Assembly: GCA_945870865.1 (NCBI GenBank)
Contig: CAMBTO010000001.1
Coordinates: 79,487 to 143,486 of the forward strand
Length of the DNA: 64,000 nucleotides
Direction: 5' to 3'
DNA from: Klebsiella pneumoniae
GTDB lineage: Bacteria > Pseudomonadota > Gammaproteobacteria > Eutrophobiales > Eutrophobiaceae
Shown here: positions 13,776-49,534 of the stretch, piece by piece
How the letters are laid out: every line of letters starts with the position of its first letter
Numbering within the stretch: the stretch's first letter is position 1
Made by a program: the position numbers and the translations under genes
The notes under the pieces: model-generated
Seen by the model: only the letters and a program-made list of their open reading frames with translations
Told to the model about the DNA's origin: nothing
Database searches by the model: none

Positions 13776-13784
13776 CACGGACTG

Positions 13785-28862: not shown

Positions 28863-29305
28863 ATTTTCTATCTTCTGTAGTAGTACTGTGAGATGGCATA
28901 TCATCAACACGCCTGACGACATGCATGCATATTAACCGCTGCAGGCCACAGGAAATATCGAATACGACCCTGACAGACCAATATTCACAATAAATCCACT
29001 ATTGCAGTTATTTATGTCACATAATATGCAGAATTAAATCGTAATGTACCCTGCGTGAAATTGCTGTGAAATTAGTGGCAGAGTAACAACGCGTTTATGA
29101 AACATACTAAATACTTTTTGACCCGACCCAGGCCTGACCACAGAAACCGGCATTAACTTCTATACTGGCCTGCACCAAAATAGATCCCCTGCCCTTAACG
29201 TATAACTTCCACGAGCGGATAGCACTGTTTCTGGGCAGCGTAGCCGTGCCTCTGCCCTGATTTATATACTGGCCACCACCTGCCGCTGATTTCCGTGCTG
29301 TTGTT

Positions 29306-29761
29306 TTGTTTCTCATGTCGAGGGTGCCGAACCGCTTTTTGTTATCAAAATTGAAGATTCTGAATGAATTCCGTCATATACAGCCCGGATGGAAACAAGT
29401 GTTGATAGCCATTGCCCTGAAAATGATCGGCCGGATCGGCACGTTTCTGGAATTGTTCCTGATACTCATCGTGCTTGATATCGATCCAGACTTTGTCGAT
29501 GTCGTGCTGGTCGAAGCGCTAGTTATGGTCAACGTCTGCCTGTTTTTCTTTATCCTACTGGAACTGGGTGTAAATGAGGCCGGCATCCTGGCCGATTTTT
29601 CCATCGCCGGACTTGCCGCAGCAAGTGGCATAGCGTTTGGTCTGCTGCGTCGAGCAAGAATGATTACCTATACGCTGACAGGCCTGTGCGTTTATGTGCT
29701 GGGTACGACTACCCGGTTTGGCAGCCAACCTTACCGTAATCAGGACCAGTCTTTACCCTGA
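29306..29761 (+). CDS. hypothetical small membrane protein (weak PsiE-like pattern)
   Basis: 151-aa ORF with hydrophobic segments and a faint resemblance to PsiE (ELVE.LVV..L.F..I.L). There is no strong RBS and it is uncertain. Confidence 0.3.
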   Translation: MFLMSRVPNRFLLSKLKILNEFRHIQPGWKQVLIAIALKMIGRIGTFLELFLILIVLDIDPDFVDVVLVEALVMVNVCLFFFILLELGVNEAGILADFSIAGLAAASGIAFGLLRRARMITYTLTGLCVYVLGTTTRFGSQPYRNQDQSLP

Positions 29762-29765
29762 AGGG

Positions 29766-30950
29766 TCAGCGGGACAGACCGACCAGCTCGGTAAATGCAC
29801 TGCACAGTCTCTCTATCTGTTCCGGTGTATGTGCTGCACTGAGGCTGCAACGTATCAACGGTCTCCCGTCCGGTGCGGCCGGAGGGAAGATCAGGTTCAC
29901 GTAAACCCCGCGTTCCATCAGCGCACTCCACAAGGTCACGGCCTGTGGTGGCGTATCCAGTTGGGCGGCTATTACCGGGCCGGCCACTGGCCCGACCCGA
30001 TATCCCTGTTCTTTCAAACAGGAATATAGCCGGTTTGCATTTATCCAGAGGCGTTCACGTAAATGGTTACCGTCACGCAGCAGTATCAATGCCGCCCGTG
30101 CAGAGGCAATATTCGATGGCGACGGGGATGCGGTAAAAATATAGGGCCGACTCAGATAACGCATCAAATCGAGTTGTTCATGGTTACTGACGCAATAGCC
30201 GCCGATACTGCCGAGACTCTTGCTGAATGTGCCGGTGATAAAGTCGACCTGATCGGTCACGCCGGTCTCTTCAACCAGACCCTGCCCGGTCCTGCCGAGC
30301 ACACCCAGTGAGTGCGCTTCATCTATCAGCATGTAACTTCCATGTGCCTTTGTGACATTGACCATTTCCGGCAACGGCGCCTTGTCACCGAGCATGCTGT
30401 AAATACCTTCAACAATGACCAGTGTTGACCGTGCTCGATCACCCAGACGGGCGAGCCTCTTGTCGAGGTCAGCGGCATCGTTGTGGCGGAACCGGATCAC
30501 TTCGGCGCCACTCAAACGACACCCGTCATAGATGCTGGCATGGCAGTGTGCATCTATCATTAATACATCACCCTGCCCTGCCAATCCGGAAATCGTGCCC
30601 AGGTTGCCCTGATACCCGGTTGAAAAGACCACGGCATGTTTGCAGTTGTAAAATTCTGCAAACTCCCGTTCCAGTGCGCGGTGGCCTTCATAATTTCCAT
30701 TGGCCATACGGGAGCCGGTCGTGCCGGTACCTTCTTCATCAATCGCCTTGTGTGCAGCAGCGATACATTCCGGCGCAAACGTCAGTCCGAGATAATTGTT
30801 CGTACCTGCCAGTAATACGCGTTTGCCAGCTATACTGGCCTCGGTTGCTGAATACATTTTTTCTATCGGTGTACCGAAGATCGATGGACGGATCTCAAGC
30901 AACGCCTTGCGGTCATCACCAAACACGGAAAATTTATCAAACAGATCCAT
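29766..30950 (-). CDS. spt: serine palmitoyltransferase-like alpha-oxoamine synthase (PLP-dependent)
   Basis: About 50% identity along its length to Sphingomonas SPT as I recall it (GTNNYLG, GSRM.NG, VVFSTGY.NLG, EVIRFRHND..DLDKRL, EGIYSMLGD.APL, IDEAHS.G, TFSKS PLP-lysine motif, RPYIFTAS, ERLW, GVYVN, IRCSLSAAHTPEQI). Confidence 0.85.
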   Translation of the reverse strand: MDLFDKFSVFGDDRKALLEIRPSIFGTPIEKMYSATEASIAGKRVLLAGTNNYLGLTFAPECIAAAHKAIDEEGTGTTGSRMANGNYEGHRALEREFAEFYNCKHAVVFSTGYQGNLGTISGLAGQGDVLMIDAHCHASIYDGCRLSGAEVIRFRHNDAADLDKRLARLGDRARSTLVIVEGIYSMLGDKAPLPEMVNVTKAHGSYMLIDEAHSLGVLGRTGQGLVEETGVTDQVDFITGTFSKSLGSIGGYCVSNHEQLDLMRYLSRPYIFTASPSPSNIASARAALILLRDGNHLRERLWINANRLYSCLKEQGYRVGPVAGPVIAAQLDTPPQAVTLWSALMERGVYVNLIFPPAAPDGRPLIRCSLSAAHTPEQIERLCSAFTELVGLSR

Positions 30951-31211: not shown

Positions 31212-32138
31212 TCACTGTAGATTCAAAGGCAATACTGCCTCGTGTAACGCATCCTGTAATTGTCTCTTTGGCCGCCAGCCTGTCGCTCGCGTCAGCTTGT
31301 CTGAATCGCACACCCAGTCGGTATGCTGTAATTCACGTACCTTGCCTGGCGTCAACATCGGTGAATAACGGAACAAACGCGCCAGCGCAAGGTTCGCTCT
31401 GGCGACTGCGCTGATGATGCTGGCAGGGACAGGCAGACTGTGTACCGGTCGTGTCCAGACCTGACTTGCAATTTGTTTTACGGCGTCGTGATCATATCCC
31501 CCGGGCGTCCCATCATCAAGCTCATAGATTCCGGCAATCGGTTCGTCTGCATTCAACCAGGACAGAATTGCCTCGACCAGATCATTAACATACAGCAGGC
31601 CGAACCTTGAGGATTTCGCTCCGGTCAGTGGTAACAAGCCAAGGCGTGTCGCACGAAATATCGGTGCCATCTCGCGATCGCCTGGACCATAAACGGCAGT
31701 TGGTCGAAATATGGTCCACTGGTTCATTCCAGCGTGTCTTATCAGGTATTGTTCTGCCTGGAACTTGCTATCTGCGTACCATGACAGTTGTGGTTCGCGC
31801 GCTGCCAGCGAGGACATCAGCAGAAACCGTGCATGAGGAACCCTGCTTGATACCGAATCAAGCAGATTGGCGGTACCATCAAGATTGGTCTTCAGGAAGT
31901 CTGCTGATGAACTGCCACGGACGCGGCCGGCGCAGTGAATTACGTAATCTGTTTCAGCCACAAGTTGATACAGCGCATCTTTATCTTCAAGTGTGCCGGT
32001 AATCCAGTGCAGGTTTTTACTGTCGGCTTGTGGCTTTCGCGTTAGCGCACGGACTGCCCAGCCCGCGGAGGTCAATTTGTGTATCAGGTTTTTGCCGATG
32101 AAACCGGTGGCGCCGGTGACCGCCACGCGTCCTGACAT
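31212..32138 (-). CDS. NAD(P)-dependent epimerase/dehydratase-family reductase (candidate 3-ketosphinganine / ceramide reductase)
   Basis: Rossmann motif VAVTGATGFIGKNL and the extended-SDR catalytic Y..xK context (YADSK). Confidence 0.8.
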   Translation of the reverse strand: MSGRVAVTGATGFIGKNLIHKLTSAGWAVRALTRKPQADSKNLHWITGTLEDKDALYQLVAETDYVIHCAGRVRGSSSADFLKTNLDGTANLLDSVSSRVPHARFLLMSSLAAREPQLSWYADSKFQAEQYLIRHAGMNQWTIFRPTAVYGPGDREMAPIFRATRLGLLPLTGAKSSRFGLLYVNDLVEAILSWLNADEPIAGIYELDDGTPGGYDHDAVKQIASQVWTRPVHSLPVPASIISAVARANLALARLFRYSPMLTPGKVRELQHTDWVCDSDKLTRATGWRPKRQLQDALHEAVLPLNLQ

Positions 32139-32141: not shown

Positions 32142-33899
32142 TCAGTAACGGGCGTCCGGCTGGGCTGATTGCTGGCTGCTGGGGAATCCGGTCCTTTTCA
32201 TGAAGCCCTGACATGCGGCTGCGCGTGACAGTTTTCCTGAAGAGGTGCGCGGAAGTGTATGTGGAGGCACTAGCTCAACCAGACAATGTACGCCGAATGC
32301 AGTGTATACCAGTCTCTGTAATCGGCTCATCAGGGCCTGACGTTCCTGAACAGCTGTCAGGCGGCATTCTATGACAAGCACAACAGTTGAAACATCGTTT
32401 GCATCAACAACAGCAAACGCCGAGGTCTCGCGCATCCTGATCTCCGGCTGTTGCTCCGCGATTTCTTCAATGTCCTGGGCGCGAATATTACGGCCATTGA
32501 TTATGATAATGTCCTTGTGACGACCGGTCAGATACAGATTGCCCTCAGATACAAAACCGAGATCACCGGTGTCCATCCAGTTGTCAGGCTTCATCACCCG
32601 GCTGGTTGTCTCCGGGTCATTGATATACCCGGACATGATACTGGGCCCTTTCAGCATGACGCGACCCACACGCAGATCCGGTAAAGCCTGGCCCTGACCA
32701 TCGACAATCGAAACAAAGTGACCCGGTAAGGGTCTGCCACAATTGACAAATTCGTTATGTTTTCTACCCTCTGCCTGTACACGCACAGCAACCCCACGTT
32801 CAGCCAGCGCCTCTGTATCTACCTTCATCACGTCCAGGCCTGTTCCCACCCTAGAGAAGGTCACTGCGAGAGAGGCTTCAGCAAGTCCGTAACATGGCAG
32901 GAAAGCCAACGGGTTGAATCCGACTGATTCAAATTTACTGGCGAAATTTTTCAGTACATCAGGCCGGATCATCTCGGCACCAATACCAGCAGCACGCCAG
33001 CTGCTCAGATCCAGACCTTCCAGATCCGCGCTACGCACCCTGAGGGCACACAGTTGCAGACCAAAAGGCGGACAAAATGCGATCGTGCAACGGTTACGAC
33101 TGATTAATCTGAGCCACTGGATCGGACGAACAGCGAAATCGCGGGTACGCAGGAAATCTACTGACAACTGCGAGACCAGTGGGGACAGGACCAGGCCAAT
33201 CAATCCCATATCATGGTAAAACGGCAACCAGGATGCACAGCGATCACTCGGGTATATGGCAAGCCCGTCACGGACGATACCTTGCAGGTTACTCATGATG
33301 GCCAATTCGGTGATGATGACGCCCTGCGGTGCGCGGGTACTACCGGAGGTAAACTGCAGATAGGCTATCTCGTCCCGCCGACTTTTCTGCATCGGCAGAT
33401 CCGATTCGGGAAGCTGCGCCAGCTGTCCCGGCGTACCGGTCCAGCGCACACTGCCTACCTCCCGGCTGGCCTCTTCAAGAAAAGATATAAAGTCCTTGTT
33501 TGCAATTGCCATGCTGGCATTGCTAATGTTGAGCATGGCACCTAACTGCCGAACATATATGTCGTGGCTACCCAGATTGACAGGTATAGGCATGGCAAAT
33601 GGAACCAGACCCGCATAGCGACAGGCAAAAAACAGGATAATAAACTCGGGGGATGTGTCTGCAATAATCGCGATAGTTTCTCCGCGTTTCAGGCCGAGAC
33701 CCAGCAAACGTCTTGCTGTAGAAATCGCGTCCTGGCGCAGTTGCTTGTAGGTAAGCACTTGCCTGAGCACGCCCCGTGCATCATAGAAGTTGTAGCCGGT
33801 CGACCCTGTTGCAGCATAGTCGAGCGCATCCGTCAGTGTCTCGAAGTCCGCCAGTCGCTGTGACAAAAGGTTCAGCGTTCCGGTTGGTTCAAGAACCAC
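32142..33899 (-). CDS. fatty acyl-AMP ligase / acyl-ACP synthetase (adenylate-forming enzyme)
   Basis: AMP-binding core motifs (FTSGSTRAPQGV, ...YGLAE..., TGD.G); 585 aa; first gene of a tight four-gene operon with 3-10 bp gaps. Confidence 0.85.
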   Translation of the reverse strand: MVLEPTGTLNLLSQRLADFETLTDALDYAATGSTGYNFYDARGVLRQVLTYKQLRQDAISTARRLLGLGLKRGETIAIIADTSPEFIILFFACRYAGLVPFAMPIPVNLGSHDIYVRQLGAMLNISNASMAIANKDFISFLEEASREVGSVRWTGTPGQLAQLPESDLPMQKSRRDEIAYLQFTSGSTRAPQGVIITELAIMSNLQGIVRDGLAIYPSDRCASWLPFYHDMGLIGLVLSPLVSQLSVDFLRTRDFAVRPIQWLRLISRNRCTIAFCPPFGLQLCALRVRSADLEGLDLSSWRAAGIGAEMIRPDVLKNFASKFESVGFNPLAFLPCYGLAEASLAVTFSRVGTGLDVMKVDTEALAERGVAVRVQAEGRKHNEFVNCGRPLPGHFVSIVDGQGQALPDLRVGRVMLKGPSIMSGYINDPETTSRVMKPDNWMDTGDLGFVSEGNLYLTGRHKDIIIINGRNIRAQDIEEIAEQQPEIRMRETSAFAVVDANDVSTVVLVIECRLTAVQERQALMSRLQRLVYTAFGVHCLVELVPPHTLPRTSSGKLSRAAACQGFMKRTGFPSSQQSAQPDARY

Positions 33900-34247: not shown

Positions 34248-35492
34248 GTGTTATCCCCCCTGTTTTCGCGGGTTGATATGAATAATTATGTTACTCTTGA
34301 CGTCATTTTTCATCCTCTGGACTGCATCTTGAATATGGGTCTGACAGCTAGAAAACAAACAACCTCGACGTCAGTAGACGTCAGGCCAGTGCTGACGGGA
34401 AGAGACTGGCGGACTTTCATCAATTTACCCTGGTATATCTATCAGGACGACGCCAACTGGGTACCACCACTACGACTTGAACGTCGCCTGCATTTTTCGA
34501 GGATGAACCCATACTTCAGAAATGCTGAGTGGCAAGCCTGGATAGCCTACAAGGACAACAGGCCGGTCGGCAGGATCAGCGCCCAGGTTGATAGGGTTAA
34601 CCGTCAATATCATGGAGAACATACCGGTCATTTTGGTCTGCTAGAGGGCATTAATGACCCTGCCGTGTTCGCCGCCTTGACCCAAACCAGTGAAGAATGG
34701 CTGTCTCAGCGTCAGACTCACCATATTTCCGGCCCATTCAGCTTTTCCATTAACCAGGAGTGCGGGGTGCTGGTTGACGGTTTTGATACTCCGCCGGTCA
34801 TACTTATGCCCCACTCGCGCCAGTGGTACGGGCTGATGCTGGAACAACAGGGTTACACACCGGCAATGGACATGCTCGCCTACTGGATTGAAACCGGATT
34901 TGAAGCATCTCGCGTTATGAAAACACTGGTGGCAAGGTTTGACAAACGTATACATCTGCGTCATTTGCGCCGCAAACAGTACTCAGAGGAGATGGAAATC
35001 CTGCGTGATATTTTTAACGACGCCTGGTCAGGTAACTGGGGATTTATCCCGTTCAGCAAGGAGGAGTTTGCTGATCTTGGTAACAGTCTGCGATTTTTTA
35101 TTGCGGACGACTTTGTGCAGATAGCTGAACTCGATGGCAATCCGGTCGCGTTTGTCGTGGTACTGCCCAACCTTAACGAGATGCTCACCCGGCTGGACGG
35201 CAGCTTGTTTCCATTGGGATGGTACCGCTTGTACCGCGCGATGAGACAGAAAAGCTTCCGTACCGGCCGCGTACCGCTGATGGGAGTACGTAAACAGTAC
35301 CAGAACAGCTCGCTGGGGCTGACCCTGGCACTGATGGTCTGTAATGCTGCACGGGTCTGTGCACGGGCGACAGGAATTGAAGCGGTTGAAATGTCGTGGA
35401 TACTCGAAAACAACCGGGGCATGCGCAGCATACTCGATAATATTGGCAGCAAGGAGTACAAACGTTTCCGCATTTATGAAAAGTCTCTGTAA
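34248..35492 (+). CDS. GNAT-fold-like acyltransferase of unknown specificity; candidate bacterial ceramide synthase
   Basis: 414-aa ORF, divergently transcribed from the SPT operon. Its C-terminal half has acyl-CoA N-acyltransferase-like segments (FVVVLPNLNEM...RQKSFRTGRVPLMGV...). The assignment is by context, not by a recognised motif. Confidence 0.5.
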   Translation: MLSPLFSRVDMNNYVTLDVIFHPLDCILNMGLTARKQTTSTSVDVRPVLTGRDWRTFINLPWYIYQDDANWVPPLRLERRLHFSRMNPYFRNAEWQAWIAYKDNRPVGRISAQVDRVNRQYHGEHTGHFGLLEGINDPAVFAALTQTSEEWLSQRQTHHISGPFSFSINQECGVLVDGFDTPPVILMPHSRQWYGLMLEQQGYTPAMDMLAYWIETGFEASRVMKTLVARFDKRIHLRHLRRKQYSEEMEILRDIFNDAWSGNWGFIPFSKEEFADLGNSLRFFIADDFVQIAELDGNPVAFVVVLPNLNEMLTRLDGSLFPLGWYRLYRAMRQKSFRTGRVPLMGVRKQYQNSSLGLTLALMVCNAARVCARATGIEAVEMSWILENNRGMRSILDNIGSKEYKRFRIYEKSL

Positions 35493-35570: not shown

Positions 35571-36653
35571 GTGAAAACACTGGGGCGATACATTAGTATA
35601 GAGATCTTCCGACCATTTGTGGTTATCAGCCTGATTCTTGCCGGATTGTTTTCCAGCTTTAATGCCGCGCGTTATCTTGAGACGGCCGTAACAGAATCAC
35701 TGGGAATGTCTCTGATCTTCAAACTGATAATGCTTAAAACCGTCATTGCCATGGAGGTACTGTTTCCGATCGCGTTCTACGCAGCCATTATCGTGGCACT
35801 TGGCCGTATGCATAGGGACCAGGAAATTATCGTAATGAAGTCGGCCGGTATAAATGAAACCTTCCTCATTAAAACTGTTATCACACTGGGTATACCAGTC
35901 GCAATCATGACAGGCATGTTGTCAATGTACGGCAGGCCATTGGCATACGACACTATCTACAGAATGGACAATAACGCCAGTAACGAGCTGGATGTGGATC
36001 GTTACCAGGCAGGACGGTTCTACGGTATCGAAAACAGTGGTCGTATCATCTATATCAACAGCAGAAACAACCGTGACCACATGCTTGAAGGCGTATTTCA
36101 CTACATCCGTCAGGACAACCGTAGTGATATTATCCTTGCCCGACAGGGCTACCAGGTCCGGAAAGGGCAATATCAACCACCGGAACTGCACCTGCTTGAT
36201 GGCAGCCTGTACCGTATCGTTCCTGGCGGCTCACGTGAATCAATAATCCATTTTTCCAGGTTTGTTTTCATTCCGGATGCAGACATAGCGATTGACTATC
36301 AGCGCAAGGCGGCACCAACACTGGACCTCGGGGACTCTGTCGACAGCCGCGACATTGCTGAATTCCAGTGGCGAATCTCCAGACCGTTCGCCACGATGTT
36401 ACTGGCGCTGGTAGCGATACCGCTAAGCCGAACCGCCCCGCGACAGGGCAAGGGAGAAAAGGCGGTCTCTGCTGCTGTAATTTTTGCCCTCTACTACAAC
36501 CTGAGTGGTCTGGCCCAGACCTGGGTCGAGCAGGGTACTGTTGGCAGCGTGCCCGGTGTATGGTGGCTGCATATGAGCATGCTTGTTTTTGTGATATGGG
36601 TACTTGCACCCGGATTTTCCAGAAAACCTGCCGGTGCACATGTACATACTTGA
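35571..36653 (+). CDS. lptF: LPS export ABC transporter permease LptF
   Basis: YjgP/YjgQ family with a GTG start; MKTLGRYISIEIFRPFVVISLILAGLF... and a periplasmic beta-jellyroll between TM3 and TM4. Confidence 0.85.
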   Translation: MKTLGRYISIEIFRPFVVISLILAGLFSSFNAARYLETAVTESLGMSLIFKLIMLKTVIAMEVLFPIAFYAAIIVALGRMHRDQEIIVMKSAGINETFLIKTVITLGIPVAIMTGMLSMYGRPLAYDTIYRMDNNASNELDVDRYQAGRFYGIENSGRIIYINSRNNRDHMLEGVFHYIRQDNRSDIILARQGYQVRKGQYQPPELHLLDGSLYRIVPGGSRESIIHFSRFVFIPDADIAIDYQRKAAPTLDLGDSVDSRDIAEFQWRISRPFATMLLALVAIPLSRTAPRQGKGEKAVSAAVIFALYYNLSGLAQTWVEQGTVGSVPGVWWLHMSMLVFVIWVLAPGFSRKPAGAHVHT

Positions 36654-37704
36654 TCGATATCTGATGAAGCAGGTTGCGCAAGGGATTGTTATCTCTACGC
36701 TGGTATTACTGCCCCTGTTCAGCTTTCTGGATCTGGTCGACCAGCTGGATGATGTGGGCACCGGCTTTTACCGCACCAGTGATGCATTCCTGTATGTTGT
36801 CATGACTCTGCCGCGCAGGTTTATCCAGCTGACCCCGTTTATTGCATTGCTTGGAAATGTGACGGCACTCGGCAGACTTGCGATTAACCATGAGCTGATC
36901 TCCCTGCGTTCAGCCGGATATTCTCCGGTACAGATCAGCATGGCATCTTTGAAGGTGGGACTCGTGCTGCTGGCGCTGATTTTTACACTTGAAATATATA
37001 TTGCGCCCCCGCTGCAACAAAAGGCCATTGCCCATCGTGCGGCGGCGATGGAACAAAGCGCCGAACTTGGAAAAAATCTGGGTATCTGGACCCGGAATGA
37101 CCGGCAGATCCTGCGCATAGGCAATTTGCAGCATGATACCAGACAGGCAAGTGTTGAAATTATCAATCTTGATGAACAGGGAAACATGTCTGAATATTTA
37201 CATGCTGAAGGTTTCGAGATCGCCAGCAATGAAGAATGGATATTGCACCAGGTAACGCGCAAGATATATACTGAGGACAACATCCGGTCGACCACGATGG
37301 ATCGATTGCCCTGGAATACCTTTCTGAATCCCGCCCAGATATCAACACTGACCAAACCACAGGAAAGCCTGTCTCCGGTCGAACTTTTCCGCTATGTCCA
37401 GCATTTACAGTCAACCGGGCAGGAAGTCGATGTATACCAGCTGTCGCTGTGGAAAAAACTGGGCGGACCACTAACGATGCTGGGGATGTTGTTGTTATCG
37501 GTACCGTTCGTGTTTGGTTCGGTTCGTACAGGTTTTGCGAACCGGCTGGTAATGGCGGGCGTTACCGGAATAACCGTCTATCTGCTCGACCAGATCTTTT
37601 CCAACACCGGGCTGATATTGAATCTGAATCCTTCGTTTATCGCGTTGACGCCTGGCATACTTTTGATCTGGATAGCACGGGTCTGGTTACGGCGTGTCCC
37701 CTGA
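36640..37704 (+). CDS. lptG: LPS export ABC transporter permease LptG
   Basis: MYILDRYLMKQVAQGIVISTLVLLPLFSFLDLVDQLDDVG: the canonical LptG N-terminus. It overlaps lptF by 14 bp. Confidence 0.85.
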   Translation: MYILDRYLMKQVAQGIVISTLVLLPLFSFLDLVDQLDDVGTGFYRTSDAFLYVVMTLPRRFIQLTPFIALLGNVTALGRLAINHELISLRSAGYSPVQISMASLKVGLVLLALIFTLEIYIAPPLQQKAIAHRAAAMEQSAELGKNLGIWTRNDRQILRIGNLQHDTRQASVEIINLDEQGNMSEYLHAEGFEIASNEEWILHQVTRKIYTEDNIRSTTMDRLPWNTFLNPAQISTLTKPQESLSPVELFRYVQHLQSTGQEVDVYQLSLWKKLGGPLTMLGMLLLSVPFVFGSVRTGFANRLVMAGVTGITVYLLDQIFSNTGLILNLNPSFIALTPGILLIWIARVWLRRVP

Positions 37705-37736: not shown

Positions 37737-38720
37737 ATGTACATATCAGCTGCTGACAAGTTATACCCACAAAATACGGCCATTTTACTGAACCCGCATG
37801 GCGGCAGGATACGCAAACGCCTGGGTCGCATACGCGAGCTCGCAGCGGCAATACCCGGTGCAATCGTGTGCGAAACAGACAATCTCGCAGACATGAACAG
37901 GACCCTTGATGAGCTGGCAGAACGCGGCGTGGGTCATCTGGTGATCGCCGGTGGTGATGGAACGGTGCAGGCCGTGCTGAACCGCCTGTTCACCGGCAAA
38001 CTCTGGTCCCGCCTGCCACTGGTCAGTATAGTCCCTGGTGGAACAACGAATATGACAGCATCTGATCTTGGTACATCCAGCAACCCTGAAAAGTGTCTGC
38101 AACAACTGGGCAGATGCCTGCAGAACGCAATGGATGTCAGGCTGGTAACGCGATCTGTTTTGAAAATCCGGCAGAATCAACAGCCGGATATTCATGGCAT
38201 GTTTTTCGGTGCCGGTTTGATAGCGCACGGTTCTGCATATTTTCACAAGCATATAAAAAAGTCCGGGCTAACCGGTGAGTCCGGTTCTGCTTTTGTGATG
38301 CTGCGTATGCTGTCAGGACTGCTGACTGGCCGCAATGCAGACGAGCGTGCCCAAATCCGGATCCAGATAACGGATGACACCGGTCACACCAGGGTATGCA
38401 ACTCTATGTTGCTGTTTACCAGCACGCTGGATCGCTTGCTGCTCGGGCTACGTCCGTATTGGGGTGGTGGTAATGGAGCTATCCATACTACCTGCCTGCG
38501 CGAGCATCCTCTCCGGTTGTGGCGATCGTTACTGACCATCGTTTGTGGTCGTGGCAACTCCCTGGACGAAAATAACGGTTATTACAGCAGAAATAACAGT
38601 GCAATTGAGCTGCTTATGGACGCCAGCTTTATTGTTGATGGTGAGTTTTTTGTTTGCGAAAGCAGGCATGGTCCGCTCAGGATTAGCCAGGCTGGCCCGG
38701 TCCGCTTTTTACTCCCCTGA
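37737..38720 (+). CDS. diacylglycerol-kinase-catalytic-domain lipid kinase (YegS / sphingosine-ceramide-kinase-like)
   Basis: DAGK_cat signature HLVIAGGDGTVQAVLNRL and a preceding NP.GG motif (LLNPHGGR). Confidence 0.8.
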   Translation: MYISAADKLYPQNTAILLNPHGGRIRKRLGRIRELAAAIPGAIVCETDNLADMNRTLDELAERGVGHLVIAGGDGTVQAVLNRLFTGKLWSRLPLVSIVPGGTTNMTASDLGTSSNPEKCLQQLGRCLQNAMDVRLVTRSVLKIRQNQQPDIHGMFFGAGLIAHGSAYFHKHIKKSGLTGESGSAFVMLRMLSGLLTGRNADERAQIRIQITDDTGHTRVCNSMLLFTSTLDRLLLGLRPYWGGGNGAIHTTCLREHPLRLWRSLLTIVCGRGNSLDENNGYYSRNNSAIELLMDASFIVDGEFFVCESRHGPLRISQAGPVRFLLP

Positions 38721-38746
38721 AATCCTCATGAGTATCATTCCGTAAC

Positions 38747-39706
38747 ATGCCCACTACTGACACCCGGTTACCACTAGGACTGATTAACGCGATTGCCCTC
38801 CAGTGTGAGCGTCCAGCAGGCATTGAAGCCGCGCTGCTTGCAAACAACATCCGGCAACGATTTGGGGATTCACTGCTTGCCGTCATTCTCTATGGTTCCT
38901 GCCTGCGTACGCATCTTTATACCGAGGGTGTGGTTGATTTATATGTGGTCGTTAACAGTTATCAGCAGGCCTACAGCGGTCATACGCTGCGTTATTTGAA
39001 TGCGGCCTTACCTCCGAATGTTTTTTATATCGAGATTAACAACAATGAAACTATCATCCGCGCAAAATACGCTGTCATTTCAGCACGTGACCTGGAGCGG
39101 GGCTGTGGCCAATGGTTCCACTCCTATATCTGGTCACGCTTTGCCCAGCCCGTCGTCCTGTTGTATGTACGCGATCCACTGACGCGTGAGCATATTTATA
39201 AAAATCTGGCCTGCGCGGTATTGACCTTACTCAGCACCACGCTACCTGCGCTCGGACCAGGCAAGGTGGACCATGCTGCAATCTGGCAGAACGGATTGGC
39301 CCTGACCTATGCAGCGGAATTGCGCCCTGAACGCCACACAAGGGCACGTGATATCACAGCGCAAAATCTGGATGACTTTGGCATCCTGATCAGAAAGGCG
39401 GCACCAGCGCTTGTTACACTGATGTTTACTGATGAAGACGACCTTTATGAAAGGCTTAGCGGGCAGACCGAAAGATCGCGGGCGACCAGATTATGGCGGA
39501 TTCGACGCTGGCAAGGATTTTTACTTTCAGTATTACGCTTGTCAAAAGCGGCCTATACCTTTCGTGACTGCGTGGATTATGCCGCCTGGAAGATCGAACG
39601 TCATACGGGTATACGCATCCACGTGACCCCGACCCTGCAACGACACCCTATCCTGTTCGGCTTTAGTGTATTATGGCAACTGATTAAAAGGGACGTACTA
39701 CACTAG
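38747..39706 (+). CDS. Tam41/Mmp37-like CTP-dependent nucleotidyltransferase (phosphatidate cytidylyltransferase-like)
   Basis: NTase-fold G-S...D.Y.VV (ILYGSCLR...DLYVVV), followed by a block VFYIEINNNETIIRAKYAVISARDLERGC..WFHSYIWSRFAQPVVLL. This block parallels the yeast Tam41 region VYFNPF..I....VKYGVVS..LL.D...W..LYLAGRLQKPVKIL as I recall it. Confidence 0.6.
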   Translation: MPTTDTRLPLGLINAIALQCERPAGIEAALLANNIRQRFGDSLLAVILYGSCLRTHLYTEGVVDLYVVVNSYQQAYSGHTLRYLNAALPPNVFYIEINNNETIIRAKYAVISARDLERGCGQWFHSYIWSRFAQPVVLLYVRDPLTREHIYKNLACAVLTLLSTTLPALGPGKVDHAAIWQNGLALTYAAELRPERHTRARDITAQNLDDFGILIRKAAPALVTLMFTDEDDLYERLSGQTERSRATRLWRIRRWQGFLLSVLRLSKAAYTFRDCVDYAAWKIERHTGIRIHVTPTLQRHPILFGFSVLWQLIKRDVLH

Positions 39707-39746: not shown

Positions 39747-40517
39747 ATGTCGGAAACAGAGTTGAAACAATCAGACCTAACACAGCCCCCGCGTCGTAGA
39801 CGCAACCGACCCAGTGTGGCCATCGGCAAGTGGGTACTCCAGCATATCGAACGTGCGTTGATCCGTTATTCCATTGTCGCTGACGTTCCAATATTTGATG
39901 CGCACCAGTTTGCCTGGACAGCCCCGCTGGAAGCAGACTGGAAAAAAGTACGCCAGGAACTTGATATGATCCTGAAAAGCCAGGTCAAACTGCCAAACTT
40001 TCAGGACATTTCAAAAGACCAGACCAACATTACCCAGGATGACCGCTGGAAAACCTTTTTCCTGTACGGCTATGGCTACAAGATGCCGAGCAATTGCGAT
40101 CTGTGTCCGGAGACAACCCGTATTATCGAGTCTGTCCCCGGCATGTTGACCGGTTTTTTTTCGGTACTGGCGCCGGGCAAACACATACCTCCACATCGCG
40201 GGCCCTATAAAGGTCTGTTACGCTGCCATCTTGCCTTGCAGGTACCGGAGCCAGCGGATCAGTGCTGGATTAAGGTAGGTGATATGTCTGCCAACTGGCA
40301 AGAAGGGCACTGTCTAGTATTTGATGATACCTATGTACATCAGGTCCAGAATAATACGGAGGGTACTCGTGTTGTTCTGTTTCTGGATATAATCCGGCCT
40401 ATGCGTTTCCCCGGGTCCTTACTGAACAGGATCGTTATCTGTTTGATACGTATGTCTCCGTTTATACAGGACGCGATCCGCAACCAGCGAGCCTGGGAAT
40501 ACAGGATTGGTACCTGA
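39747..40517 (+). CDS. aspartyl/asparaginyl beta-hydroxylase-family Fe(II)/2-OG dioxygenase (LpxO/OlsC-like lipid acyl-chain 2-hydroxylase candidate)
   Basis: ...LAPGKHIPPHRGPYKGLLRCHLALQVP...CWIKVGD....W.EG.CLVFDD.Y.H.V.N....RVVLFLDI: the conserved AspH-family core. Confidence 0.8.
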   Translation: MSETELKQSDLTQPPRRRRNRPSVAIGKWVLQHIERALIRYSIVADVPIFDAHQFAWTAPLEADWKKVRQELDMILKSQVKLPNFQDISKDQTNITQDDRWKTFFLYGYGYKMPSNCDLCPETTRIIESVPGMLTGFFSVLAPGKHIPPHRGPYKGLLRCHLALQVPEPADQCWIKVGDMSANWQEGHCLVFDDTYVHQVQNNTEGTRVVLFLDIIRPMRFPGSLLNRIVICLIRMSPFIQDAIRNQRAWEYRIGT

Positions 40518-42933: not shown

Positions 42934-43602
42934 CTAACTTCTTGTGGCAAGCAGGCTGTCAAGCTGTATAAGCCGCTCCGGTGTCCCGATGTCGAACCAT
43001 CTACCCTTGAAATATTGACCGCTGACTTGCTGGTTCAACATCGCCTGTTTTAATAACGGAACCAGTGAAAAGAGCTGGGGATCGGTCCCGGAAAAAATCT
43101 GAGGGTCATAAACCCCTATGCCACTATAGGTCTGTAAGGTCTGCCCGGTTGTCGATAACAGGCCGTCCGTCAAGGCAAAATCACCGCCAGAGTTATGCGG
43201 TGGGTTATCCACCATAATCAGATGGGCCAGTCCTCCCGGGTAGGCAGGCAGGCTGCGGTAATCAAACTCGGTCCAAATATCACCGTTGACCAGAATAAAC
43301 GGCGCGTCCCCCAGCAGTGGCAAGGCCTTGCGGATACCCCCACCGGTTCCCAATGGCTCATCGCCTTCGTGGGAATAGTGGATATGGACCCCGAAACTGT
43401 CACCCTCGCGAAACCAGGCCTGTATCATCTCACCCAGCCTGCCGGTGTTTATTACAATCTTATCTACCGAGGCAGCCACAAGCGACTCTATATGATACTG
43501 CAATAAGGGTTTACCGCCGACCTGCAACAGGGGTTTGGGCGTATGCAAACTCAACGGCATCATCCGCGCTCCCTTGCCTGCAGCCAGTATCATCGCTTGC
43601 AT
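42934..43602 (-). CDS. murU: N-acetylmuramate alpha-1-phosphate uridylyltransferase-like nucleotidyltransferase
   Basis: MQAMILAAGKGARMMPLSLHTPKPLL.VGGKPLLQYHIESL...HYSHEGDEPLGTGGGIRKALPLLGDAPFILVNGDIWTEFD: near-colinear with Pseudomonas MurU as I recall it; 222 aa. Confidence 0.75.
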   Translation of the reverse strand: MQAMILAAGKGARMMPLSLHTPKPLLQVGGKPLLQYHIESLVAASVDKIVINTGRLGEMIQAWFREGDSFGVHIHYSHEGDEPLGTGGGIRKALPLLGDAPFILVNGDIWTEFDYRSLPAYPGGLAHLIMVDNPPHNSGGDFALTDGLLSTTGQTLQTYSGIGVYDPQIFSGTDPQLFSLVPLLKQAMLNQQVSGQYFKGRWFDIGTPERLIQLDSLLATRS

Positions 43603-43790: not shown

Positions 43791-44765
43791 ATGGGTGACA
43801 GGGAAAAACTGCGACAACTTGGCCGGGCTGTTATCGAGACCGAGGCAAACGCTGTTGCCGACCTGCTCGGGCGCATAGATGATAACTTTGTGGATGCGTG
43901 CAAATTGATACTGGCAAGCAAGGGCAGGACCGTTGTCATAGGCATGGGTAAATCGGGCCACATTGCGAGCAAGATTGCCGCCACACTGGCCAGCACCGGC
44001 ACGCCGGCGTTTTTTGTACATCCAGGTGAGGCCAGCCACGGCGATCTCGGCATGATTACCCCGGACGATGTTGTCATCATGCTATCCAATTCCGGTGAAA
44101 CTGACGAAATAATAACCCTGTTGCCGGTAATTAAACGATTGGGAATCCCGTTGATTGCCCTGACCGGCAATCCGGAGTCCACGCTGGCCAAAATTGCCAC
44201 CACACATATCGACGTCAGCGTGACCAGAGAGGCCTGTCCGCTCGGGCTGGCACCGACCGCCAGCACCACTGCCGCTCTGGTGATGGGTGATGCAATTGCG
44301 GTGGCATTGCTGGAGGCCAAGGGTTTCAGCAAGGAAGATTTTGCCCTGTCACATCCGGGAGGCATCCTTGGAAGAAAACTGCTGCTTCGCGTCAATGATA
44401 TAATGCATACCGGCAGCCGTATACCGAAGGTCTCACAACATACGCTTCTGCGTGATGCACTGATGGAAATGACACGCAAGGGATTCGGCACCACCGCTAT
44501 CATTGATGACAACGATAGAGTGGCTGGCATATTCACCGACGGCGATGTCAGGCGGATGCTTGATATCGGCATTGACTTGCATGCCAACAACATCGGCAAT
44601 TTCATGACTGCCGGATGCAAAACTATTCAGGCAACTGCACTGGCCGCAGAGGCCGTTAAAATGATGGAAGATTACAAAATCAATGTATTACTGGTCGTGG
44701 ATCATGATAACAAGCTCGCCGGCATCCTCAATATGCATGATCTACTGAGGGCGCGTGTTGTTTGA
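43791..44765 (+). CDS. kdsD: arabinose-5-phosphate isomerase (SIS plus tandem CBS)
   Basis: SIS motif GMGKSGHIASKIAATLASTGTPAFFVHPGEASHGDLGMI and C-terminal CBS pair. Confidence 0.9.
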   Translation: MGDREKLRQLGRAVIETEANAVADLLGRIDDNFVDACKLILASKGRTVVIGMGKSGHIASKIAATLASTGTPAFFVHPGEASHGDLGMITPDDVVIMLSNSGETDEIITLLPVIKRLGIPLIALTGNPESTLAKIATTHIDVSVTREACPLGLAPTASTTAALVMGDAIAVALLEAKGFSKEDFALSHPGGILGRKLLLRVNDIMHTGSRIPKVSQHTLLRDALMEMTRKGFGTTAIIDDNDRVAGIFTDGDVRRMLDIGIDLHANNIGNFMTAGCKTIQATALAAEAVKMMEDYKINVLLVVDHDNKLAGILNMHDLLRARVV

Positions 44766-45291
44766 TCTGCCCACAGTTCTGAAAAAAGCCGCTTTGATAC
44801 GGCTCGCCGTATTTGATGTTGATGGCGTATTGACCAGTGGTGACATTATCTATACCAGCAATAATCTGGAACAGAAAGTGTTCCATGTCCATGACGGGCT
44901 GGGACTGAAAATGCTGATGCGCAGTGGCTGTGAGGTTGCCATTATCACTTCGCGTAACTCTGCGATAGTGTCAACAAGAATGGCTGAACTGGGTATTGTC
45001 CACGTGCTGCAAGGCCAGGAGGATAAGCGCACAGCCATGATGTCGCTGATGCAAGCGCTGGGAGTCGACCCGGCCGGGGCGGCCTATACCGGGGATGATC
45101 TGATTGATCTCCCGGCCATGAAACTGTGCGGCCTGTCCTTCGCCGTTGCCAATGCACATCCTCTGGTAAAGTCGAACACGGACTGGACGACAGAAAAGCC
45201 GGGGGGTTCGGGCGCAGTCCGGGAAATATGCGAACTGTTACTCAAGGCACAGGGCAAACTGGACGCCATCTATGCTGAATACCTGCGCTAG
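44755..45291 (+). CDS. kdsC: 3-deoxy-D-manno-octulosonate 8-phosphate phosphatase
   Basis: HAD motif I FDVDGVLTSG and a conserved KdsC core (DGLG.K.L...G). Confidence 0.88.
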   Translation: MLFDLPTVLKKAALIRLAVFDVDGVLTSGDIIYTSNNLEQKVFHVHDGLGLKMLMRSGCEVAIITSRNSAIVSTRMAELGIVHVLQGQEDKRTAMMSLMQALGVDPAGAAYTGDDLIDLPAMKLCGLSFAVANAHPLVKSNTDWTTEKPGGSGAVREICELLLKAQGKLDAIYAEYLR

Positions 45292-45315
45292 AACAAAACC
45301 CTTCCGGAGATAATC

Positions 45316-45885
45316 TTGTCACGACGCCTGATCCTGTTCCTGATTCTTGCCGTCGCCGCGGTTGGCAGCGGCTGGCTGATGAAAAGGATTAGCGGGACTG
45401 AACCTGTCCCCTCCGTAAGTGACCGGATTGATCCGGATTATTATATGGAAGATTTTACAACAATCTCCATGGATGAAAATGGCCTGCCAGCAAGCAAACT
45501 ATACGCGGTATATATGGAACATAACCCGGCGGATGACACGCTGGAGTTGTATGAGCCGAACCTGGAAGTCTACCGGGGAGAATCAGACCCGCTGAGGATT
45601 ACAGCCGACACGGGCTGGGTGACAAATAATAACGAGGTGATCCTGTTACGCGGCAAGGTACGTATGTGGATCGAAGATGCGGCCGGCCAGGTAACATTGA
45701 ATGTAGATACGACCGAAGTACGGGTATTGTTGCTTGAAGAATATGCAGAGACGGACCAGAATGCGACTATTGTTGCCAAACGAACCACAGTTAAAGGACG
45801 GGGAATCCGGGCACATTTCGATGATAACCGACTGGAAATACTGGATCATGAACAGACTACAATTGCGCCGCCTAATCGGATTTAA
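45316..45885 (+). CDS. lptC: LPS export protein LptC
   Basis: N-terminal TM anchor and a periplasmic beta-jellyroll; sits between kdsC and lptA. Confidence 0.8.
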   Translation: MSRRLILFLILAVAAVGSGWLMKRISGTEPVPSVSDRIDPDYYMEDFTTISMDENGLPASKLYAVYMEHNPADDTLELYEPNLEVYRGESDPLRITADTGWVTNNNEVILLRGKVRMWIEDAAGQVTLNVDTTEVRVLLLEEYAETDQNATIVAKRTTVKGRGIRAHFDDNRLEILDHEQTTIAPPNRI

Positions 45886-46402
45886 CCTTGGCCTGCTAAT
45901 GTGCGTCAGTTCAGCCATGCTGTACGCCTTGTCGGCCGACAAAAATAAGGACATCGAAATTGAATCGAACTCTGCCTATCTCGATGATACAAAAAACGTC
46001 AGCGTCTATACAGGTAACGTAGTTGTCATCCAGGGCAGCATGCGGATCACCGGCGACAAGATGACAATTCTCTATAATGAAAACAATGAGTTGGACAAGA
46101 TTATTATGGAGGGTCAGCCCGCAACATTCAGGCAGATGCCAGATAACAGCATGGTCTACGATGAGGCCGAGGCACTGGTAATGGAATATTATGAAAGTAG
46201 GAGCCTGATCGTTCTGACGGACAAGGCCCGAGTTAAACAGGGTGACCGTCGACTGATAGCCGACCATGTGGAATACGATACCAACCTGAGCCAGGTCCGT
46301 GCCAACAGTAATGAAGCCACTACCAAAACCGATCCGGCGACGGACGCCCGGGTCAAACTGATTATCCCGGCAAGAAAAACAGGCACGGCCACCGGCAACT
46401 GA
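45848..46402 (+). CDS. lptA: LPS transport periplasmic protein LptA
   Basis: Signal peptide MNRLQLRRLIGFNLGLLMCVSSAMLYALSA and an OstA-like N-terminal domain (IESNSAYLDD...VYTGNVVVIQGSMRITGDKM). This start is chosen within the longer ORF-track call and overlaps the lptC 3' end. Confidence 0.8.
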   Translation: MNRLQLRRLIGFNLGLLMCVSSAMLYALSADKNKDIEIESNSAYLDDTKNVSVYTGNVVVIQGSMRITGDKMTILYNENNELDKIIMEGQPATFRQMPDNSMVYDEAEALVMEYYESRSLIVLTDKARVKQGDRRLIADHVEYDTNLSQVRANSNEATTKTDPATDARVKLIIPARKTGTATGN

Positions 46403-46446
46403 ACTTCCCTTTTATCGCTCACTGAAATACGACTGCTACTAAGATT

Positions 46447-47172
46447 ATGGGAATACTGTCCGCCAGAAACCTGTCCAAGAAATATCGTCGGCGCGAGGTA
46501 GTTCGTGATGTCAGCCTGACTGTAAACGAAGGCGAGATCGTCGGCCTGCTTGGTCCAAACGGTGCGGGGAAAACCACCAGTTTCCACATGCTGGTCGGAC
46601 TGATACCCTGTGACACCGGCAATATATTGCTCAACGAGCAGGATATAAGTCATTTGCCGATGGATAAACGTGCCCGGCTGGGCGTTGGTTACCTGCCCCA
46701 GGAATCTTCGATCTTCCGTAAACTGTCGGTGGAAGACAATATCATGGCCATTCTTGAAACACGTCCGGATATCAGCACGGAAGACGCCAAGGCCCAGCTT
46801 GAAGAGTTATTGCAGGAGTTTCACATCGTGCACCTGCGGGGTAGCCTCGGCATGAGTTTGTCCGGCGGGGAGCGCAGGCGCGTTGAAATCGCGCGTGCAC
46901 TTGCAGTTAACCCCAAATTCCTGCTGCTGGACGAGCCGTTTGCCGGAATCGACCCGATATCAATCGCCGATATCCAGCGTATCGTCAAATATCTGAGTGA
47001 GCGTGGCCTGGGCATCCTGATTACCGACCATAATGTCCGCGAAACACTGGGATCATGTGATCGGGCCTATATTGTCAATGATGGACGCATAATCGCGGAA
47101 GGGACGCCCGAACAGATTCTCGCCAATGAACACGTCAGGAATATTTACCTCGGCAACCAGTTCAGAATGTAG
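46447..47172 (+). CDS. lptB: LPS export ABC transporter ATPase LptB
   Basis: Walker [10 protein letters not shown], signature [15 protein letters not shown] and Walker [13 protein letters not shown]. Confidence 0.93.
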
Positions 47173-47226
47173 ATATTTTTACAGTAAATGACAAATATTG
47201 CGCGGTTTTTGCATTAAACTAATCTT

Positions 47227-48696
47227 ATGAAGCCGTCACTTCAGTTAAAAATCAGCCAGAGTCTAACCATGACCCCGCAGTTGCAGCAGGCGATACGTCT
47301 GTTACAACTGTCAACACTTGAGCTGCAAACCGAGATCCAGGACGCGCTGGATTCAAATATGATGCTGGAACTGGATGACGGTGGCGATGAGGCGCCGGAC
47401 TTTCCGGCAGAAATGCCAACAGAAACGCGCGAGGATATGCCTGAGCTGGAGCTCAAAAATGATATCAACAGCCTCGAACTGTCAGCGGATCTGACCGGTG
47501 ACCTGCCGGTAGATACAGCCTGGGACGATGTATTTGATGAAAATATTTCCTACAGCAGTAGTACGTCGACAGGCAATACGGATTACTTCGAAAACCAGAA
47601 ACCACGCGAAACTACACTCAGCAAACATTTGCTCTGGCAACTGAACCTGATTCCTGTCAGTGAAGCTGACAAGGCAATAGCAATGATCATCATCGATGAG
47701 CTTGATCAGGATGGTTATCTGCAAATAACCGTAGAGGACATCGTACCGCTCCTGGACGAGGAAATCGGAGCCGGTCCTGAGGAGGTTGCGGCGGTACTGC
47801 GGCTGGTACAAATGATGGAACCTGCGGGCATAGGCGCGCGCGATTTGCGGGAATGTCTGTTACTACAACTCGCGCAATGTGACCAGAACACGCCCTGGCT
47901 AGCCAAGGCATGTGAGGTGGGAAACCATCATATGCACCTGCTCGCAGCACACGATTATAACCAGCTGATGAAAAAACTAGGCCTGGATCGTAACCAGTTG
48001 TCTGAAACTATTGCACTTATCCAGTCGTTAAACCCCCGCCCGGCCAGACAAATACAGGATGACGCGATCGAATACATTGTTCCGGATATCTACGTTAAAA
48101 AACAAAACGGTCACTGGCTGGTCGAACTTAACGGTGATGCTACTCCTCGACTCAGAATCAATGCCGGATATGCAAACATGATAAAGCGTGCGGACGGCAG
48201 CGCTGACAACACCTCGCTCCGGGAACACCTACAGAAGGCGCGCTGGTTGATTAAAAGTCTGCAAAGTCGTTGCGAAACGCTGCTGAAGGTCTCGACCTGT
48301 ATTGTGGAAAGACAACAACCCTTTCTGGAGCACGGTGAACAGGCCATGCGGCCACTGGTGTTGCATGACATCGCCGAACAGCTTGGTATGCATGAGTCCA
48401 CTATTTCTAGGGTGACTACGAGAAAATATATGCACACTCCTCGTGGCATTTTCGAGCTGAAGTATTTTTTTTCCAGTCATGTCAGTACCGACGATGGTGG
48501 TGCGGCATCGTCGACCGCCATACGCGCCTTTATCAAAAAACTGGTAGCAGAAGAAGATACACAGAAACCACTGAGCGACAGCAGGATAGCCAAGGTACTT
48601 GGCGAACAAGGTATACAGGTTGCACGTCGGACCGTGGCCAAATATCGCGAGGCCATGGCAATACCACCATCCAATGAAAGAAAGCAGTTGATTTAA
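47227..48696 (+). CDS. rpoN: RNA polymerase sigma-54 factor
   Basis: Region I (LQLKISQSLTMTPQLQQAIRLLQLSTLEL), an acidic region II, and a C-terminal RpoN box (ARRTVAKYRE). Confidence 0.93.
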   Translation: MKPSLQLKISQSLTMTPQLQQAIRLLQLSTLELQTEIQDALDSNMMLELDDGGDEAPDFPAEMPTETREDMPELELKNDINSLELSADLTGDLPVDTAWDDVFDENISYSSSTSTGNTDYFENQKPRETTLSKHLLWQLNLIPVSEADKAIAMIIIDELDQDGYLQITVEDIVPLLDEEIGAGPEEVAAVLRLVQMMEPAGIGARDLRECLLLQLAQCDQNTPWLAKACEVGNHHMHLLAAHDYNQLMKKLGLDRNQLSETIALIQSLNPRPARQIQDDAIEYIVPDIYVKKQNGHWLVELNGDATPRLRINAGYANMIKRADGSADNTSLREHLQKARWLIKSLQSRCETLLKVSTCIVERQQPFLEHGEQAMRPLVLHDIAEQLGMHESTISRVTTRKYMHTPRGIFELKYFFSSHVSTDDGGAASSTAIRAFIKKLVAEEDTQKPLSDSRIAKVLGEQGIQVARRTVAKYREAMAIPPSNERKQLI

Positions 48697-48720
48697 CCCA
48701 ACTTTAAAACGGAGACTAAA

Positions 48721-49047
48721 ATGCAGACAAATATTACCGGTCGCCATCTGGACATCACGCCCGCGCTACGATCCTATGTGCATGAGAAGTTTGAGCGTCT
48801 GCAACGTCATTTTGATCATATCACCAACAGCCATGTCATACTGTCCATTGAAAAGGAACGGCAGAAAGCCGAGGCGAGCGTTCATGTCAATCGCGGCAAC
48901 CTGTTTGCCGAAGTCGAACACGAAGACATGTATGCTGCCATTGATATGCTGATAGACAAACTGGACCGGCAGCTGAAAAAGCACAAGGAAAAACTGACTG
49001 ACCATCACAAGGGCAATGGTGGTAATAAGGGTCAGGAACCACTCTAA
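48721..49047 (+). CDS. hpf: ribosome hibernation promoting factor
   Basis: MQTNITGRHLDITPALRSYVHEKFERL...: YfiA/HPF family. Confidence 0.9.
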   Translation: MQTNITGRHLDITPALRSYVHEKFERLQRHFDHITNSHVILSIEKERQKAEASVHVNRGNLFAEVEHEDMYAAIDMLIDKLDRQLKKHKEKLTDHHKGNGGNKGQEPL

Positions 49048-49082
49048 ACGAATCCATCATTCCCTTTTAACAAGGCATATTC

Positions 49083-49529: not shown

Positions 49530-49534
49530 TATGT

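Follow-up and report, generated by a model that had tools for sequence, protein, structure and literature searches.

The 64,000-nucleotide stretch of contig CAMBTO010000001.1 analyzed here (assembly GCA_945870865.1; hereafter the window) carries two adjacent plus-strand genes, encoding a lipid kinase and a protein with a nucleotidyltransferase (NTase) fold related to Tam41. We refer to them as cpgB-type and cpgC-type after their Caulobacter counterparts. An earlier note on this DNA, made from the sequence alone, had described a lipid kinase followed by an NTase-fold protein, and both open reading frames (ORFs) were found as described, except that the gap between them is 26 nt rather than 27. 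The pair stands at the end of a full sphingolipid cluster of the Caulobacter type, in which spt, acp, cerR and aasR are located on the minus strand and cerS, lptF, lptG, cpgB, cpgC and a hydroxylase gene on the plus strand (Table 1), followed further downstream by mltF, murU and a canonical kdsD-kdsC-lptC-lptA-lptB-rpoN block. The neighboring ceramide genes seen in the earlier note are real, comprising spt (600 bits on the betaproteobacterial Spt model) as well as genes for an acyl carrier protein (ACP), a short-chain dehydrogenase/reductase (SDR) and a fatty acyl-AMP/ACP ligase (FAAL).

Table 1. Genes of the sphingolipid cluster in the window and the matches supporting their assignment.
Gene or product	Position	Strand	Evidence
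spt, serine palmitoyltransferase	29766..30950	-	NCBIfam SerpalmtaseBetaP 600.3 bits (cutoff 500); Pfam Aminotran_1_2 E 2.7e-53
acpR-type dedicated acyl carrier protein, 83 aa	30950..31201	-	ACP family matches, E about 4e-10
cerR-type NAD(P)-dependent reductase (SDR/epimerase family)	31212..32138	-	Pfam Epimerase E 6.2e-28
aasR-type fatty acyl-AMP/ACP ligase (FAAL)	32142..33899	-	NCBIfam fatty acyl-AMP ligase 826 bits (cutoff 600)
bCerS-type ceramide synthase (GNAT-like N-acyltransferase)	34248..35492	+	weak GNAT match, E 4.3e-4
lptF permease in the sphingolipid cluster	35571..36653	+	NCBIfam LptF 318.9 bits (cutoff 230)
lptG permease	36604..37704	+	NCBIfam LptG 308.4 bits (cutoff 240)
cpgB-type lipid (ceramide) kinase, 327 aa	37737..38720	+	Pfam DAGK_cat 66.9 bits, E 1.7e-18
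cpgC-type Tam41-fold nucleotidyltransferase, 319 aa	38747..39706	+	Pfam Tam41_Mmp37 E 4.1e-5; fold; profile
OlsC/LpxO-type Fe(II)/2-oxoglutarate lipid-acyl hydroxylase	39747..40517	+	Pfam Asp_Arg_Hydrox E 1.6e-53

The kinase translation contains the motifs GGDGT (within AGGDGT) and PGGTTN, and among proteins of solved structure, the soluble lipid kinases BmrU, DgkB and YegS are nearest to it; the DAGK_cat match (Table 1) bears out the earlier assignment of a DAGK-domain lipid kinase. It shares 36% identity with the gene at the Neut_1105 position of Nitrosomonas eutropha and 34–55% with the kinases in the cpgB position across related loci, reaching 87% in the locus of the closest relative, L003. 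In Caulobacter, CpgB (CC_1160/CCNA_01218) has been purified and makes ceramide-1-phosphate in vitro. By analogy with this biochemically shown ortholog, we infer that the window kinase would use ATP to phosphorylate ceramide, supplied by the products of the flanking spt, acpR, cerR, aasR and cerS genes, yielding ceramide-1-phosphate.

The cpgC product scores 23.5 bits against the Pfam model Tam41_Mmp37 (PF09139; gathering score 24.0), a threshold which is passed by relatives, including P0138 with 34.3 bits and several search hits with precomputed PF09139 assignments. The Tam41-like block pointed out in the earlier note is genuine: residues 103–158 (KYAVISARDLERGCGQWFHSYIWSRFAQPVVLL...) align gap-free to Schizosaccharomyces pombe Tam41 (6IG2) KYGVTSKKDVYEDLKNWNTMYLAGRFQKPVVIL, in a block spanning KYGV...W...GRFQKPVVIL, and a profile of 56 diverse family members matches 6IG2 with an E-value of 1.4e-5 over family positions 91–221. 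With an AlphaFold model of the window CpgC, built with an alignment of 34 sequences (pLDDT 81.9, pTM 0.81), ranks 1–5 of a Foldseek search were all taken by Tam41 chains. The model comprises an NTase domain (residues ~25–143), a helical/winged-helix domain (~144–236) and basic C-terminal helices (237–319), and contains the NTase and winged-helix fold of Tam41. Kinship of CpgC with Tam41 is therefore confirmed at the level of sequence profile and modeled fold, whereas identity to the solved Tam41 proteins (S. pombe 6IG2/6IG4 and Firmicutes 7ECD) is only about 14–18%.

Individual residues were mapped using an S. pombe Tam41 fragment (P0121, 92 aa), the residues of the cytidine triphosphate (CTP) site given in the TAMM41 variant paper and column counts over the 56 family members. 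Y49-G50-S51 of the window CpgC corresponds to the hG[GS] motif (GYGS in S. pombe), and D64, in the sequence DLY (D64-L-Y66), to the sole Asp of the Tam41 IDFIF/DFI segment; both G50 and D64 are found in 56 of 56 members. Tam41 keeps just one of the three canonical NTase carboxylates, and this single carboxylate is common to the CpgC family and Tam41. K107, invariant in the CpgC family, aligns to the CTP-binding human K109 and S. pombe K156, the likewise invariant R131 aligns to human R133, and the conserved P135 to human P137. Further along, the conserved Y188, E191, R193 and E195 (a Y..E.R.E motif) match S. pombe Y231, D234, R236 and E242, which flank F240. The two families hence share the Lys of KY.V, the Arg of RF..P and the motif SY..[DE].R....E.

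The last 83 residues of CpgC (237–319) have a net charge of +10 and include the strongest amphipathic helix of the protein (252–269; hydrophobic moment 0.51, charge +4), while no transmembrane segment was detected in the window CpgC (highest 19-residue Kyte–Doolittle window 1.47). A basic amphipathic C-terminal helix in a protein without a transmembrane segment parallels the membrane-binding helix of Tam41. CdsA differs from CpgC in having an unrelated fold with nine transmembrane helices and an Asp-Asp dyad, but its reaction on a lipid phosphate would be analogous to that of CpgC if the hypothesis developed below holds. Residues 250–301 of CpgC contain a set of family-invariant positions (W250, R253, G257, R264, K267, T271, F272, Y278, W281, K282, R285, H286, G288 and P301), which is conserved far beyond the needs of a simple membrane anchor. 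In a sequence-profile search, this motif found no alignment to S. pombe Tam41, and it is a family-specific feature by which CpgC differs from Tam41.

Relatives of CpgC were found in at least 568 species genomes, and the family comprises 1378 clusters at 50% identity. The view of the earlier note that bacterial Tam41 homologues are rare and uncharacterized must accordingly be given up, also because a Firmicutes Tam41 (7ECD), which makes cytidine diphosphate (CDP)-diacylglycerol, is known from a solved structure and from assays, and there is genetic work on CpgC. In a scan that took a single genome for each species, 80 loci were kept, a sample biased to Nitrosomonadaceae by the alignment used as seed. 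In all 75 related loci with enough upstream DNA, the gene immediately before the Tam41-like gene is that of the kinase, with a median gap of about 51 nt between aligned ends, and because this order is kept in 75 of 75 loci, we rejected a chance adjacency of the two genes. In 53 of 72 related loci, cpgA is located upstream of the kinase gene. The cerS-(cc1153)-lptF-lptG-(cpgA)-cpgB-cpgC order is kept in about 70 Nitrosomonadaceae species.

Two proteins appear to be candidate fusions. P0124 (662 aa) consists of a full CpgB, a short linker and a CpgC in which the MTHSIS start is still visible, its kinase half being 39% identical to the window kinase (E 8e-75), while P0265 (594 aa) joins a CC_1153-like NTP_transf_3 domain to CpgC. 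Taken together, synteny and these putative fusions point to a functional unit of kinase and CpgC.

The window CpgC and the N. eutropha protein in the Neut_1106 position share 50% identity, and Neut_1106 is the ortholog of Caulobacter CC_1161 (E 2e-38) in a published comparison that lists Neut_1100–1106 as orthologs (Olea-Ozuna et al. 2024). The N. eutropha locus in our set (L052) has the order CC_1153-like gene, lptF, lptG, cpgA (PF01066), cpgB (DAGK_cat) and cpgC-like gene, which reproduces the published order of Neut_1101–1106. With the alphaproteobacterial protein P0240, the window CpgC shares 37% identity over 308 residues (E 5e-49). P0240 occupies the CC_1161 position of a locus (L083) in which lptG2-lptF2-x-Metallophos-cpgA-cpgB-cpgC and spt-acp-cerR-aasR are arranged in the Caulobacter order, and its own search matches belong to Rhodospirillales (Azospirillum, Rhodocista and Arenibaculum), not to Caulobacter. 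In another locus (L084), cpgB and cpgC overlap by 4 nt and are found beside genes for a lipid desaturase and a glycosyltransferase; the kinase of this locus is 34% identical to that of the window (E 1e-48).

The closest relatives by CpgC identity are L003 (86%; CAMDWI010000003.1, syntenic with the window), L004 (61%) and L013 (53%). The species label Klebsiella pneumoniae carried by L003 is almost certainly wrong; its genes and closest named relatives indicate a beta/gamma-proteobacterium from freshwater, close to Nitrosomonadaceae, and we ascribe the window likewise to an uncultured beta/gamma-proteobacterium. These three and the window have the same compact layout, with spt-acp-cerR-aasR next to cerS-lptF-lptG-cpgB-cpgC and without cpgA or CC_1153. 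The Nitrosospira lacus locus L001 also has no cpgA, and its cpgC is followed on the minus strand (11041–15123) by genes for a HAD hydrolase, an epimerase, a 2-hydroxyacid dehydrogenase, an HpcH/HpaI aldolase and a CTP_transf_3 cytidylyltransferase, a block that could either supply or activate a hydroxy-acid head group or else belong to unrelated sugar-acid biosynthesis.

In Caulobacter, cpgB and cpgC represent the same two families in the same order, adjacency and embedding (spt, acpR, cerR, aasR, cerS and lptFG) as the window pair. Deletion of cpgC (ΔCCNA_01219, CC_1161) leaves ceramide phosphate in place and abolishes ceramide phosphoglycerate (CPG) and CPG2. The enzyme order given in the earlier note, and ceramide rather than diacylglycerol (DAG) as the substrate, are hence supported by the in vitro activity of CpgB and by the ΔcpgC phenotype, and the window pair is in all probability orthologous to cpgB and cpgC, acting in that order on ceramide. 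By the same genetics, the lipid substrate of CpgC would be ceramide-1-phosphate, in contrast to the phosphatidate used by Tam41. A glycerolipid salvage route unrelated to the surrounding sphingolipid genes, in which a DAG kinase provides phosphatidate and a bacterial Tam41 converts it to CDP-DAG, could be read from the ability of Caulobacter CpgB to phosphorylate DAG besides ceramide in vitro, from the CDP-DAG product of the Firmicutes Tam41 and from the UniRef label of phosphatidate cytidylyltransferase on some family members. We regard this route as very improbable, since ΔcpgB leaves phosphatidate levels unchanged in vivo, ΔcpgC specifically loses CPG and keeps ceramide-1-phosphate, the pair is embedded in ceramide-synthesis clusters of beta-, gamma- and alphaproteobacterial loci, and the family stands apart as a group whose invariant positions differ from those of Tam41.

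The Caulobacter cluster includes cpgA, CC_1153, cpgD, Metallophos, HIT, lptC2 and flippase genes, whereas the window cluster is without all of these and adds an OlsC/LpxO-type hydroxylase. Using N. eutropha CpgA and CC_1153 as queries, tblastn gave no match in the 64 kb at E <= 1e-5, the CDP-alcohol phosphotransferase motif DG..AR...G...D...D was absent from every frame of the 64 kb, and Pfam searches of most other long ORFs (outside 13.8–18.8 kb and 52–64 kb) returned nothing relevant. An NTP_transferase gene at 42934–43602, the only one near the cluster, was considered as cpgD and rejected, as its product is MurU (272.8 bits, cutoff 250).

In Caulobacter, the CDP-alcohol phosphotransferase CpgA and the CTP:phosphoglycerate cytidylyltransferase CpgD are needed only for the second phosphoglycerate. 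Like TagD/TagF, CpgD/CpgA represent CDP-activated head-group chemistry, here within the same pathway as CpgC, but in both systems the soluble partner (CDP-glycerate in the case of CpgD/CpgA) is activated and not the lipid, and CpgD is a GlmU/IspD-type rather than a Tam41-type NTase. This gene content suggests that the lineage can perform no more than the first head-group step, as in the case of Zymomonas in the published comparison. Because the cluster is without cpgA, CC_1153-type and cpgD-type genes, the predicted product is a CPG-like lipid with a single phosphoglycerate and not CPG2.

A scheme for the second step can be modeled on Tam41, which converts phosphatidate to CDP-DAG. CpgC would attach peripherally to the membrane through its basic amphipathic C-terminal helix, bind a nucleoside triphosphate (NTP), most likely CTP, and transfer the nucleotidyl group to the phosphate of ceramide-1-phosphate, giving CDP-ceramide and pyrophosphate. 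The order of this step has been shown genetically in Caulobacter, and its chemistry is proposed by analogy. In a third step, the hydroxyl of glycerate or another small alcohol would displace CMP to form ceramide phosphoglycerate. The catalyst would be either CpgC or a transferase whose gene lies beyond the window. The end product may undergo 2-hydroxylation by the neighboring OlsC/LpxO-type hydroxylase and export through the LptFG of the cluster.

For the scheme as a whole, with formation of a nucleoside diphosphate (NDP)-ceramide by a Tam41-fold enzyme at the expense of an NTP, probably CTP, we hold the chances to be about even. Fold, energetics and the conservation of the NTP-binding core speak for it, whereas two altered Tam41 positions and the missing downstream transferase call for caution. 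The idea of a CDP-activated ceramide in the earlier note is a re-derivation of a published hypothesis and not new, as the Tam41 InterPro domain was already noted in CC_1161 homologs and an NDP-activated ceramide proposed (Olea-Ozuna et al. 2024). In publications of the Klein laboratory from 2025 and May 2026, the CpgC step is still described as "unidentified".

Several observations count against the scheme. The window CpgC is 0.5 bit short of the Pfam gathering threshold, and the connection to Caulobacter is drawn through the published N. eutropha ortholog table together with synteny. No CDP-alcohol phosphotransferase or CpgA homolog that could use CDP-ceramide was found in the 64 kb, neither by tblastn nor by motif scan, so that the CDP-alcohol phosphatidyltransferase partners for which the earlier note had suggested a genome search were not seen in the window. 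CDP-ceramide, cytidylyl transfer or an activity of CpgC have not been reported in the literature. Of the functionally implicated Tam41 positions, the hG[GS] motif, D64, K107 and R131 are retained and two are not. Residue 134 is Gln in 56 of 56 members, where Tam41 has a CTP-binding Lys (human K136, S. pombe K183). The residue at the position which we take to be that of yeast D220, placed with a presumed yeast sequence that reproduces the published Y209 and P236 equivalences and hence a lead rather than a test, is G119; the column holds Gly in 26, Ala in 13, Leu in 5, Gln in 3 and Tyr in 2 family members (49 of 56) and no acidic residue was seen, whereas S. pombe Tam41 has an Asp here. In the yeast enzyme, the mutation D220A abolishes activity.

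Gln134 in place of Lys and the loss of the D220-equivalent carboxylate alter the nucleotide pocket of Tam41, so that CpgC might use ATP, GTP or UTP and form ADP-, GDP- or UDP-ceramide instead of CDP-ceramide, and Olea-Ozuna et al. deliberately wrote "NTP/NDP". Considering that the two close structural relatives which have been solved use CTP and that CpgD and CpgA of the same pathway use CDP chemistry, a nucleotide other than CTP seems improbable to us.

The same two replacements are also compatible with CpgC being a glycerate or phosphoglycerate transferase acting directly on ceramide-1-phosphate, where the Tam41-like fold would serve as a lipid-phosphate scaffold or would activate the small-molecule partner instead of the lipid. 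Such a direct transfer corresponds to the scheme of Zik et al., in which CpgC adds glycerate to ceramide phosphate, and would agree with the invariant C-terminal motif peculiar to the family (W250...F272, Y278, K282, R285, H286 and G288), which is unaligned to Tam41, with minimal clusters whose only recognizable head-group genes are cpgB and cpgC and in which no separate transferase was recognized, and with the published cofitness of CpgC mutants with the gluconeogenic phosphoenolpyruvate and fructose bisphosphate enzymes. We nevertheless consider it rather unlikely, as it is energetically unfavorable to condense a phosphomonoester directly with an alcohol (Olea-Ozuna et al. 2024), the invariant hG[GS] motif, the metal-binding Asp and two residues of the CTP pocket argue for the use of an NTP, and CpgD already provides CDP-glycerate and is itself needed only for CPG2.

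Within the NDP-ceramide scheme, CpgC might even be bifunctional, with the Tam41-like core making CDP-ceramide and the invariant C-terminal module (W250, R253, K267, F272, Y278, K282, R285, H286 and G288) transferring ceramide-phosphate to glycerate. This is a speculative proposal that we would not expect to hold, but it would explain why lineages such as this one make do with cpgB and cpgC, without a CDP-alcohol phosphotransferase gene in their cluster.

Among the remaining genes of the cluster, acpR is placed between spt and cerR as is CC_1163 in Caulobacter, the placement of cerR is that of CC_1164 and Neut_0459, and aasR is placed as CC_1165. The bCerS-type gene, whose real start may be downstream of the GTG, encodes a protein 53–63% identical to the product of the first gene of cerS-cc1153-lptF-lptG-cpgA-cpgB-cpgC loci in Nitrosomonas and Nitrosospira; this head-of-locus position is that of Neut_1100, the CC_1154 ortholog (Olea-Ozuna et al. 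2024). The listed TTG start of lptG overlaps lptF, and an ATG a few codons further in is probably the real start. A scan for promoters and terminators between the plus-strand genes gave nothing above background and no convincing terminator. As the hydroxylase gene begins only 40 nt past cpgC, without a convincing terminator in between, it is probably co-transcribed with cpgC. Such a gene follows cpgC in just 3 of 74 related loci (L003, L004 and L053). Its product falls below both NCBIfam equivalog cutoffs (OlsC 260.7 vs 450 bits; LpxO 144 vs 500 bits). Since the ceramide acyl hydroxylase of Caulobacter is a DesA-family enzyme, the OlsC/LpxO-type gene may encode a non-orthologous ceramide 2-hydroxylase.

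The in-cluster LptF and LptG score above their equivalog cutoffs and look canonical, whereas LptF2 and LptG2 of Caulobacter are divergent. A canonical kdsD-kdsC-lptC-lptA-lptB-rpoN-hprK-rapZ block (43791–51392, plus strand) is located just 6 kb from the cluster. Together with the gene order kept in Nitrosomonadaceae, this raises the question of whether one LptFG pair serves both lipopolysaccharide and sphingolipid transport there. At the other end, an ORF of 151 aa beside spt (29306–29761, plus strand) shows a partial match to the transmembrane domain of lysyl-phosphatidylglycerol synthase (E 2.9e-8, C-terminal third of the model only) and may belong to a membrane protein gene that is truncated or has a wrongly called start. 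An RND efflux pair just upstream of the sphingolipid genes (24673–28922, minus strand) consists of an AcrB-family pump (1036 aa) with an HlyD-family adaptor; transporters of the MmpL/RND type are reported to adjoin spt in Myxococcus.

CpgC belongs to the route from ceramide to CPG, the first anionic lipid, by which bacteria attach the phosphoglycerate head group to ceramide. In Caulobacter, anionic sphingolipids allow survival without lipid A and are the target of polymyxin. The window adds to this a naturally occurring, compact cluster of minimal content (ceramide genes, lptFG, cpgB, cpgC and hydroxylase) that would be convenient for heterologous reconstitution, a residue map showing which parts of the Tam41 pocket CpgC retains and which differ, and evidence from synteny and putative gene fusions for a kinase–CpgC unit. 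CDP-ceramide, if it is formed, would be a new class of activated lipid and the first nucleotide-activated sphingolipid, and Tam41-type chemistry would then reach from mitochondrial cardiolipin synthesis to sphingolipids.

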